From Lingula anatina (taxonomy: Eukaryota; Animalia; Brachiopoda), in NCBI GenBank assembly GCA_051362555.1, contig CM120640.1, forward strand, positions 32,693,967-32,757,966: a stretch of DNA of 64,000 nucleotides. Direction: 5' to 3'. The notes below the pieces were generated by a model. That model saw only the letters and a program-made list of their open reading frames with translations, was not told the DNA's origin and ran no database searches. How positions within the stretch are numbered: the stretch's first letter is position 1; each line of letters begins with the position of its first letter. This document shows positions 58,201 through 61,200 of this stretch, in pieces. The position numbers and the translations under genes were made by a program.

Positions 58201-61200
58201 AAAGAGGCAAACTGCCACACAGCTTAAGCAAATGTATGCAAAACAAAAAGCACAAAGAAAACTCAAGACAAGGATTTTCCCATTTTATCCTGAAAAAGAT
58301 ATTTATGAGCCGTAAGTCAAACAATTAGTCTTATTGTGAACTGCAAGCCTCTATTTGGTTTAGAACAAGGAATCAAAAACCTCAATTTTCGTAACTTTTT
58401 CAGAGTCACAATTTTCAAATCATTACCCTGAGGTAGATGTGAAATATTTTTACTTGATTTCTATTTCTTCTCTTTTAGAGGTTCAGATTCCTCATAAACC
58501 AAATCATGTAACAATTAAGGTAAAAGCAAAGCTATCGCAAGAGGAAAAACAAACTGCCAAAAATTGATATATCTAGATAAACAAACACTGAGTGAAAAGT
58601 GCCCAATACAAACATCCACAAGTTCAAATGATCTGCACATATAACCATTTGATATCAATAAATCAGAAATAAACATGTCACTCCACTTCTAGTGCCAAGA
58701 TGAAAAAGAAGATAAAACAAAGACATCTAAAACATTCCTGGTCGGGGTATCACGTGCTCCTCCCTAACAGCACTTTGTGAAATAACCTGAAATTTCTGCC
58801 AAAAAGTGCTGCACAGTCATGCAACAGAAACAGGTTCTACTGTATGAACACATAAAATGGCACATTCATGCAATTAATAAAAAGAAAAGAAAGAAAAAAA
58901 AAATACACGCATATTCAGCCACATGCCCAAAACCAAAGTGTTACCTATGGCTGGATTGATGAATCGTAAGAAAATAACAGTTCCGATAACTGTCCAAACG
59001 GCTTCCGGGGCACTTTGCTGAAACCTCTGTGTGACCACCTGGTACAAACAGTGACACATGCTCCGCAGTTTAGGAGGGAACCTGCCAATGATAATCCACG
59101 CTGACAAGTTACATTGGTGAAGCAACTTTTATGACAAAACTCTTGGCAGGGACTGGACTTCAAATAAGATACTATCTGCAGAAAAGTGGACACATGTAAC
59201 ATGCCTATAGACCATACATCCCCCCCCCCCCCTCTTATCTGTGTATATTATTTTCAAGATATAAATTATGGTCACATCATAGCACTGGTAAAATGTCCAC
59301 ATTTCCAGCAGTGTGTATCAAGTCCTATCCCTGCCCAGGACATTACCTAGAGCTGGGTTGATAAAACGGAGAAATATCACAGTTCCAACAGCTGCTGTGG
59401 CAGAATCTGGAAACCTGCAGCTAACAACTTGATTCAAACAATGGCACATGTTGCGTAACTGGGGAGGGAACCTGGAATCAATACATATTTACAGATAGGT
59501 GGCGATACTGCAGAAGGGGATCACAACAGACCTCTGGGTCTTTCTTCTACAGGATGGTCAAAATTTTCTTGAAATCCCACCATGTAAAAAAGGTGATTTG
59601 ATTTCTGAATTAACCTAAAGAGAGTGTCATCCCTGATGGTTGGATCCGCCCGTACACTAAAGCCACACTAGAATGTTTATTGGTTTAAGCATATAATTAC
59701 TTATCTTAGAAAAAAGTCAGGTCTTAATAATGAACAGAGAATGAAAATGTTTTCTTTTTTGCCACTTGATTACTAAGCAGAAAAAAATCTGCAAAATATA
59801 TGATTTGAATTCTTTATAAAAACCATTTCACCAGAATTCTACAATTGCATGTTCTATCACCTGTATAAAGTTGTCGCTCTACCAGAAAATATAACTTCTA
59901 TCAACATGTCATGGGGGAAAAACTCAAACAATACGTGCTAAAAAATTTGTCAAAAAAATTAAAAAAGCCCCATGCCCAAAGGAAAAAAATCTGTAACCAA
60001 TATCTGACGAAATATTTAACATACTGAAAAAGCACAGAGAACAATTTTCTACCACAATATAAAGCATCACTGCAAAACTTACTTTTGGGAAGATGCCATG
60101 ATGGCATTGAATACCTTCTGTGTCAACAGCATGAGATGTCTTCGATTGTCTTCAATACTTTCGCACCCTTCCAACCTAGAAGGCGGTTTCATATATATAA
60201 CCTGGGTACATGTATAAATATACTTACATGTATAAATATATGAATACATGACTGAAAAATCTTCTTTAAAAAACAGAATAAATCTTTTAATAGCAGGATT
60301 TTTTTTCACACACCTGAAGGTTCTGGTACACAAATCCCAATATAATCCACTTGTTACTTTTTCTCCTAACCATTTATTTTAAAATACTTTTATAAAGCTC
60401 GCATTAAAATCTAAATATCCCACCTTGCTGGGTCCACTTCATATGAAACACACTGCTTATCAGACATGAACATTTCCTCCAGATACGGGCTGAGAAGCTC
60501 ACGCAGGTATTTCTGCCCATACATCTTGAAGCAGAACGCCATGATTTTGCTGGCCAAACTGTTGCCTCGAAACAAAGTCTGCATGCAGTCAGCGACTTCA
60601 ACCTGATGTAACAAAGAATATTTACATCTAAAATACAAATGCCACAGGAAAATCATCAATATCAAAATTAATATAAACCTTGGCATAACATTAAAACTGA
60701 AACAAATATAATTTATCCTCAGAGCTTGTCATTATGAAACATTTCTTTCAATCTTACTGGGACAATAAATAATGAGAAAAAATTCAGTGTAGAAGGATGC
60801 ACTTGCCTCTTTGGAAAACATGTTCCATAATAACTGGTACAGCAAGTGCTTGGCATCAAATAGCGTCACAAATACACGGGCTAGCTCATCCTGATTAGCA
60901 AAACATAAAAAATATAAAGAATTTATGGAATCATCAATACATTCTATACATTCTATACATGCAGACTTCTACAACTAACAAATTTACATGAAACAAGCAA
61001 ATCATCAAAAAAGATAGCCAAATGGAAAAATAAGCATTTTAAGTCTTTGTATTCTTAGTATTGGTACATGAATAGGACAGGAAAGAGAGTCAAGGGCCAT
61101 CTTTTTCCATGTCTCACCATGTGCTGTGTAGATACCACAGAGGCTAAAGCCATGGCAATGGGAAGCTCTCCCTTGTCTCCTATCATGGTCACTAGTTCTA

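Follow-up and report, generated by a model that had tools for sequence, protein, structure and literature searches.

NF1, the gene for neurofibromin, is of major importance in tumour suppression and in learning. Among the closest described systems is vertebrate exon 23a, which is inserted at Q1370/V1371 (PMC11751910). Its 21 extra residues lower KRAS affinity 3-fold, with no listed contact altered (PMC7437355). Here we describe two adjacent NF1 exons, A and B, in a 64,000-nucleotide stretch of Lingula anatina DNA, which is called the window below. Similarly to exon 23a, A and B involve alternative splicing within the same 41-residue GRD segment and leave the KRAS contacts unaltered. Compared with exon 23a, which is a cassette insertion at an intron between Q1370 and V1371, Lingula A and B have no intron at that site. 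The A/B swap replaces the whole segment including the FLR motif, and its 4-residue change lies further C-terminal. There is no homology between the two systems, and the route is exon swapping instead of insertion, as the original prediction had proposed.

PKM exons 9/10 and FGFR exons IIIb/IIIc are examples of homologous mutually exclusive exons. A and B share with the human pairs of this kind, as characterised in PMC5740500, their position as neighbouring paralogs, identical phases, the same structural element and non-triplet lengths. The frameshift class is the commonest in humans, where 60% of clusters have lengths not divisible by three, and NF1 has 0 mentions in the main text of this landscape (PMC5740500). 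Unlike the human pairs, the swapped element here bears the catalytic-support motif of a RasGAP and is common to several phyla. Of the features of homologous mutually exclusive exons that could be tested, A and B show all apart from strict exclusivity, which is only weakly sampled. An earlier description of invertebrate NF1 exon pairs was not found in the literature covered, with subscription journals and most supplements, which may include one in the tables of splicing surveys, lying outside that coverage.

In Dscam exon 17, reportedly described by Yue et al. in 2013, steric hindrance is said to be combined with RNA structure. As in Dscam exon 17, an intronic stem at the Lingula locus would cut the donor-to-branch-point distance below 50–60 nt. 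Unlike Dscam exon 17, the A/B stem is predicted only, in one species, and was not seen in worm-like loci.

NF1 Gene and Its Neighbours

The NF1 gene occupies 43216..63752 on the minus strand of the window. It was located by tblastn of two named Lingula anatina proteins (P0171 and P0246), which align along 63752-43216 with almost no mismatches; 40 introns were chained, and the Pfam domains RasGAP, CRAL_TRIO_2 and PH_NF1 were detected. The RasGAP domain is followed by the Sec14-like and PH-like domains, and the FLR motif is present, in agreement with the identity of an NF1 RasGAP. The window covers residues 843-2798 of the named Lingula anatina neurofibromin, and the 5′ part of the gene lies outside it. 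P0171 and P0246 contain exon A, and the A/B segment is the sole segment that matches the window twice. Exon B is missing from the named Lingula protein models.

One NF1 intron (60806-60603) has a GC donor (exon end GAG, intron start GCAAGT), and read ends run on into the upstream exon as expected. Ordinary neighbours of NF1 are a Separase-like gene (Peptidase_C50; about 9400-23640, plus strand), an RGS-domain gene (654-1271, minus strand) and an LHFPL-family gene (30864-38541, plus strand). The window also holds a single-exon frame of 503 codons (6703-8214, minus strand) that encodes an Anp1 glycosyltransferase domain (E 3.9e-51); fungi are the best-known carriers of this family.

Layout, Frame, and Sequence of Exons A and B

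All four exons of the arrangement are on the minus strand. The constitutive exon U (60083..60175) lies upstream and exits in phase 2, and the constitutive exon D (57716..57890) lies downstream and is entered in phase 1; both joints of U and the joints of D are present in RNA reads. Exon A (59347..59471) is 125 nt long and encodes 41 aa, the probable ancestral length, and it is the faster evolving of the two. Exon B (58945..59081) is 137 nt long and encodes 45 aa; it is highly conserved and holds a probably derived 4-residue insertion with an invariant W-T-V. The U-A, A-B and B-D introns measure 611, 265 and 1054 nt, respectively, and all are GT-AG. These adjacent paralogous exons code for the same structural region, with the same phases and canonical splice sites.

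Translation of the joined exons gave open reading frames for both U-A-D and U-B-D. The U-A-B-D product meets a stop at 58947-58945, the last codon of B, and the U-D product, in which both exons are skipped, meets a stop at 57880-57878, four codons into D. Double inclusion or skipping shifts the frame, so only one-of-two keeps it. The wrong products, with A+B or neither exon, would be removed by nonsense-mediated decay.

A and B are identical at 29 of 41 aligned residues, and 17 of these are encoded by different codons. Synonymous sites between them are saturated (pS 0.80-0.88 vs. pN 0.17-0.20). Compared with human isoform I, both exons cover residues 1357-1397, hence their FLR arginine corresponds to R1391. 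Against the human 2839-residue isoform, the match is interrupted after position 14, which is the exon 23a site. The A/B length difference is at about 1377-1384, some 7-14 residues after this site.

The original prediction was accurate in the coordinates of the two intact paralogous exons, their lengths, peptides, AG/GT sites and phases, in the one-of-two rule, in placing the FLR arginine at human R1391 and the 23a site after Q1370, and in the old duplication under selection, which the codon differences and the pS and pN values support. It placed the A/B differences at the same spot as exon 23a; this is right for the segment and wrong for the spot. The 4-aa insertion with a Trp in B also stood, and the proposed ‘Y versus N’ is not a fixed difference. 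A synonymous allele within exon A, at window position 59408, was observed in the RNA runs and in the DNA contig.

Splicing and Assembly in Sequencing Reads

Reads were aligned from one DNA run and three RNA runs of three studies (44, 18, and 20 reads); these are three of nine RNA runs, with 21 runs in all. The threshold for a splice joint was 3 reads, and rarer A-B or U-D joints would fall beneath it. The U-A joint was covered by 11 reads (6 in X12, 5 in X18) and the A-D joint by 4 reads (3 in X12, 1 in X18). The B-D joint was covered by 4 reads from 4 starts in run X15, which showed zero depth on exon A. A and B are each spliced to exon D in RNA, by 4 reads apiece. Three of the four joints that had been predicted (U-A, A-D and B-D) are therefore present, and the fourth, U-B, was not seen at the 3-read threshold in these three low-depth runs. 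The same runs showed neither an A-B nor a U-D joint at that threshold. Run X12 had a depth of 1-2 across B and the A-B intron, consistent with unspliced RNA. The 8 reads that decide between A-D and B-D were unevenly distributed over the runs (Fisher p 0.029), with study, individual, and tissue confounded; as the tissue of the RNA runs is not given, the three are inseparable.

In DNA run X3, one contig spans 57697-59485 and therefore carries both A and B. This result bears on the reading that the pair is an assembly artefact of two haplotypes in tandem, or that one exon is a dead pseudo-exon. The named Lingula protein is found on two scaffolds in near-identical form (P0171 and P0246), which indicates that that Lingula assembly holds haplotype copies, and the protein models use A only. 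An artefact or a pseudo-exon is nevertheless extremely improbable, and we rule it out on the DNA contig with both exons, their splicing, the A-B order in genomic loci, the saturation of the A/B synonymous sites and the conservation of B, Lingula B sharing 84-96% identity with the B exons of other phyla. None of the three conditions named as refuting the original prediction held: both exons are spliced, both are conserved with dN/dS far below 1, and both are on one contig. We are highly confident that A/B is real and expressed, and that this exchange of exons in neurofibromin's catalytic core is deeply conserved.

Distribution across Lophotrochozoa

Proteins covering the segment were available for 41 named spiralian species; in two more, no fragment reached it. 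A and B are annotated as separate isoforms in at least 12 of the 41, in bivalves, gastropods, and octopus: Gigantopelta, Patella vulgata, P. caerulea, Haliotis cracherodii, Babylonia, Pomacea, Mya, Ruditapes, Mytilus edulis, Crassostrea angulata, Ostrea edulis, and Octopus bimaculoides. Among the isoforms listed, 22 of the 41 species had B alone, including the nemerteans Lineus (B alone among 15 of 21 isoforms) and Tubulanus. A alone was found, again among the isoforms listed, in five of the 41 (Lingula, Tegillarca, and the annelids Owenia, Ridgeia, and Lamellibrachia). In Elysia, one automated model joins a portion of A to B. A B-like form of 46 residues, without the Trp, occurs in Macrostomum, where two NF1 paralogs of the flatworm Macrostomum lignano (P0186 and P0382) carry it. 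One more protein, P0360, shows a divergent B-length exon ending in PAL, an A-like end; in some animal this may represent a third copy of the exon or a recombined one.

A pattern search for B retrieved 35 genomic loci. The B acceptor AG was conserved in 34 of them (the remaining one is cut off) and the B donor GT in all 35. Sixteen loci showed the order A-B, with A 566-2559 nt upstream of B, in the same phases and with its AG/GT splice sites conserved in 16/16. In these 16 loci (L005, L007, L011, and 13 others), A is 140 nt long because its acceptor lies 15 nt further upstream. The encoded A is longer by 5 residues at its N-terminus, like that of the Ridgeia protein, with which it groups (94/90); the extension and this grouping suggest that the 16 loci are likely annelid.

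At four loci (L018, L020, L021, and L025), the gap from U to B is only about 110-130 nt, so that A is lost there. Judged from these gaps, at least one lineage has lost exon A and uses the derived B constitutively. A fifth locus, L006, has 518 nt between U and B and no A match. TGCATG after B was absent in all five of these loci. At the remaining 14 of the 35, neither U nor A was found upstream, and they are uninformative on the pair. Short tandem copies of the end of B, with a donor site, were observed in the downstream intron of L019 and L026.

The pair is larger in spread than was first thought, and its isoforms are already present, unremarked, in automated annotations. The proposal of an independent invention in one lineage is thus replaced by a pair common to Lophotrochozoa.

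Selection and Origin of the Pair

In 14 distinct loci of the 16, with pooled pairs of related animals, dN/dS was 0.080 (0.043-0.129) for A and 0.019 (0-0.048) for B. Both exons are under purifying selection, with A evolving at about four times the rate of B. Over 11 taxa, identity was 89% for B-B, 69% for A-A, and 61% for A-B within species. With the 12 of 41 species and the 16 of 35 loci, purifying selection indicates an old lophotrochozoan pair and no lineage quirk.

The 14 B rows formed one group in a tree of 37 rows (85/85; 98% of bootstrap trees). The A rows of this tree formed no single group (8% of bootstrap trees; 45 columns), and mollusc A showed its own conserved features (99/98 clade). 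The outgroups were human, Ciona, nematodes, and arthropods, with no cnidarian or sponge. A has the same length as human, Ciona, and two nematodes, and arthropods have 2-3 more residues within the same loop. As A has the outgroup length and the B rows form one group, the B insertion is likely derived, with a single origin before the mollusc/annelid/nemertean/brachiopod split. This split is dated to the early Cambrian or before. The pair is seen in a brachiopod and in molluscs and, from the sequences of the loci above, likely in annelid worms. It would have arisen once, by tandem duplication in an early lophotrochozoan, and its exons are likely used one at a time.

The faster evolution of A and its loss in one lineage, together with the 22 of 41 named species that have B alone among the isoforms listed, could also mean that the isoforms are near-equivalent, B being the main form and A a minor, slowly decaying one, or that the pair only sets NF1 dose via unproductive splicing. 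We consider this improbable, because A has a dN/dS of 0.08, is retained in three mollusc classes, a brachiopod, and worms, keeps the conserved features of its mollusc clade, and was the sole form joined to D in two of the three RNA runs. Our overall reading, which we hold to be quite probable, is that of a tandem-duplicated pair of single early-lophotrochozoan origin, whose exons are used one at a time and give two competent GAPs tuned indirectly.

Predicted Structure and Ras Contacts

AlphaFold models were obtained for a matched pair of Gigantopelta proteins, not for the window's own B, from 33-row alignments (pLDDT 85 and 84). Both Gigantopelta models retain the GRD fold. The FLR helix spans residues 178-199 (R192) in the B model and 177-195 (R188) in the A model, so the helix of B is longer by three residues and its loop by one. 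In these predictions, B would extend the FLR-bearing helix N-terminally by about one turn and place the invariant Trp there.

W-T-V at 1381-1383 was observed in 17/17 B rows, and A rows have I/V/T/M-x-A. Residue 1363 is S in 16/17 B rows vs. 1/12 A rows. Among the A rows, F/Y occupies 1393 in 9/12 and L occupies 1397 in 11/12. A is variable at the second-shell positions 1363, 1374, 1381-1384, 1393, and 1397.

Within the segment, the listed KRAS contacts are L1390, R1391, N1394, and P1395, and the only SPRED1 contact is H1366 (PMC7437355, Table S2/S3). All four KRAS contacts are invariant in 29/29 A and B rows. In the same 29 rows, H1366 deviates in Octopus alone, and it does so alike in both exons. 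A direct swap of Ras-contact residues is ruled out by this invariance. The KRAS and SPRED1 contacts do not distinguish A from B, which speaks against a simple specificity switch, and tuning, if there is any, would have to be indirect. The invariant contacts predict that the A and B isoforms are both active GAPs and that any difference is second-shell. The two catalytically competent Ras-GAP domains would then likely be tuned in activity by an indirect route.

The pair may instead be regulated with isoforms that differ not in Ras-GAP rate but in closed/open dimer balance, in membrane recruitment, or in a partner at the turn and Trp of B. The identical Ras contacts and the fixed W-T-V (17/17 B rows), which lies outside the listed interface, are in line with such a difference. 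So is residue 1363, with its S in 16/17 B and 1/12 A rows, as PMC7437355 counts S1363-H1366 among the residues of the SPRED1 surface. Against it, H1366, the sole listed SPRED1 contact of the stretch, is the same in both exons, and exon 23a has no listed direct contact, yet lowers KRAS affinity 3-fold. The effect of 23a on affinity gives indirect tuning at this segment a precedent. On balance, a difference outside the Ras-GAP rate appears rather unlikely, and indirect tuning of GAP activity is the reading that we retain.

Candidate Controls of the Exon Choice

The A-B intron is predicted to fold into a stem. Its 5′ arm (59297..59338, core 59320-59338, minus strand; inverted repeat I7) starts 9 nt into the intron, and its 3′ arm (59142..59191, core 59142-59160, minus strand) lies 61-109 nt before the B acceptor. 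The stem joins +9..+50 to -109..-61, with pair probabilities of mostly 0.93-1.0. Its energy of −46.6 kcal/mol (z −4.0 to −4.3) is beyond all 200 shuffles and is the strongest among 36 NF1 introns, the next best reaching −26.1 (z −2.7); the stem was noticed post hoc among 48 inverted repeats.

A candidate branch point of B, by consensus only, is GTAAC at 59108..59112 (minus strand), with its A at 59109 (-28). The predicted path from the A donor to this branch point is 238 nt in linear RNA and about 41 unpaired nt with the stem. The published limit for the distance between donor and branch point is 50-60 nt. In Lingula, the stem over the 265-nt intron would thereby bring the A donor within about 41 nt of the B branch point, and so short a path may block A-to-B splicing. 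A distant branch point near the donor of A is not favoured, because AG dinucleotides lie at -21, -46, and -60 before B. In the 16 worm-like, distant loci, the stem reached p<0.05 in only one. Across phyla, neither conservation of the stem nor docking-selector pairing was found, and worm-like loci showed no flank pairing.

The B acceptor has 10/20 pyrimidines, tied for the fewest among 41 introns. Two TGCATG, Rbfox-type motifs, follow the B donor at +73 (58867..58872, minus strand) and +122 (58818..58823, minus strand). The B-D intron alone among the 41 has two TGCATG in its first 200 nt, with a chance of about 0.005. In neurons and muscle, a UGCAUG motif that follows an exon is a mark of activation by Rbfox. 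Among 20 distinct loci of one lineage, which are close kin and not independent, TGCATG lies within 200 nt after B in 11 and is absent in nine. It was found in 0/10 cases after A and in 22/266 background windows. The intron flanks of B are 0.67/0.53 identical, compared with 0.23-0.40 for A, U, and D, with few U/D loci and non-independent kin.

The weak B acceptor and the downstream UGCAUG motifs suggest that an Rbfox-type factor may turn B on by cell type, in neurons or muscle by analogy. The switch would set Ras-GAP output by cell type and would be convergent with vertebrate exon 23a in both place and purpose. That A and B are cell-type-regulated, functionally distinct isoforms is probable. 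The most specific version, in which a cell-type-specific, Rbfox-driven switch of two GAP cores has existed since before the mollusc/annelid/brachiopod split and is convergent with exon 23a, is tentative, and we put its chances at somewhat below even.

Significance of the Exon Pair

Models are still the basis of arguments on how splicing near the FLR helix alters NF1 activity while the Ras contacts stay untouched. The A/B pair is a natural, deeply conserved two-state experiment on the FLR segment, in animals of neurobiology such as octopus, snails, and oysters. The exon swap has been hidden in annotations, since the Lingula models lack B and the mollusc isoforms are filed under anonymous X numbers. 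If the proposed reading is true, NF1 activity would have a natural allosteric dial in the loop and helix start just before the FLR motif, one that evolved twice, and the W-T-V helical extension of B would be a variant tested over 500 million years that reveals how this dial is turned.
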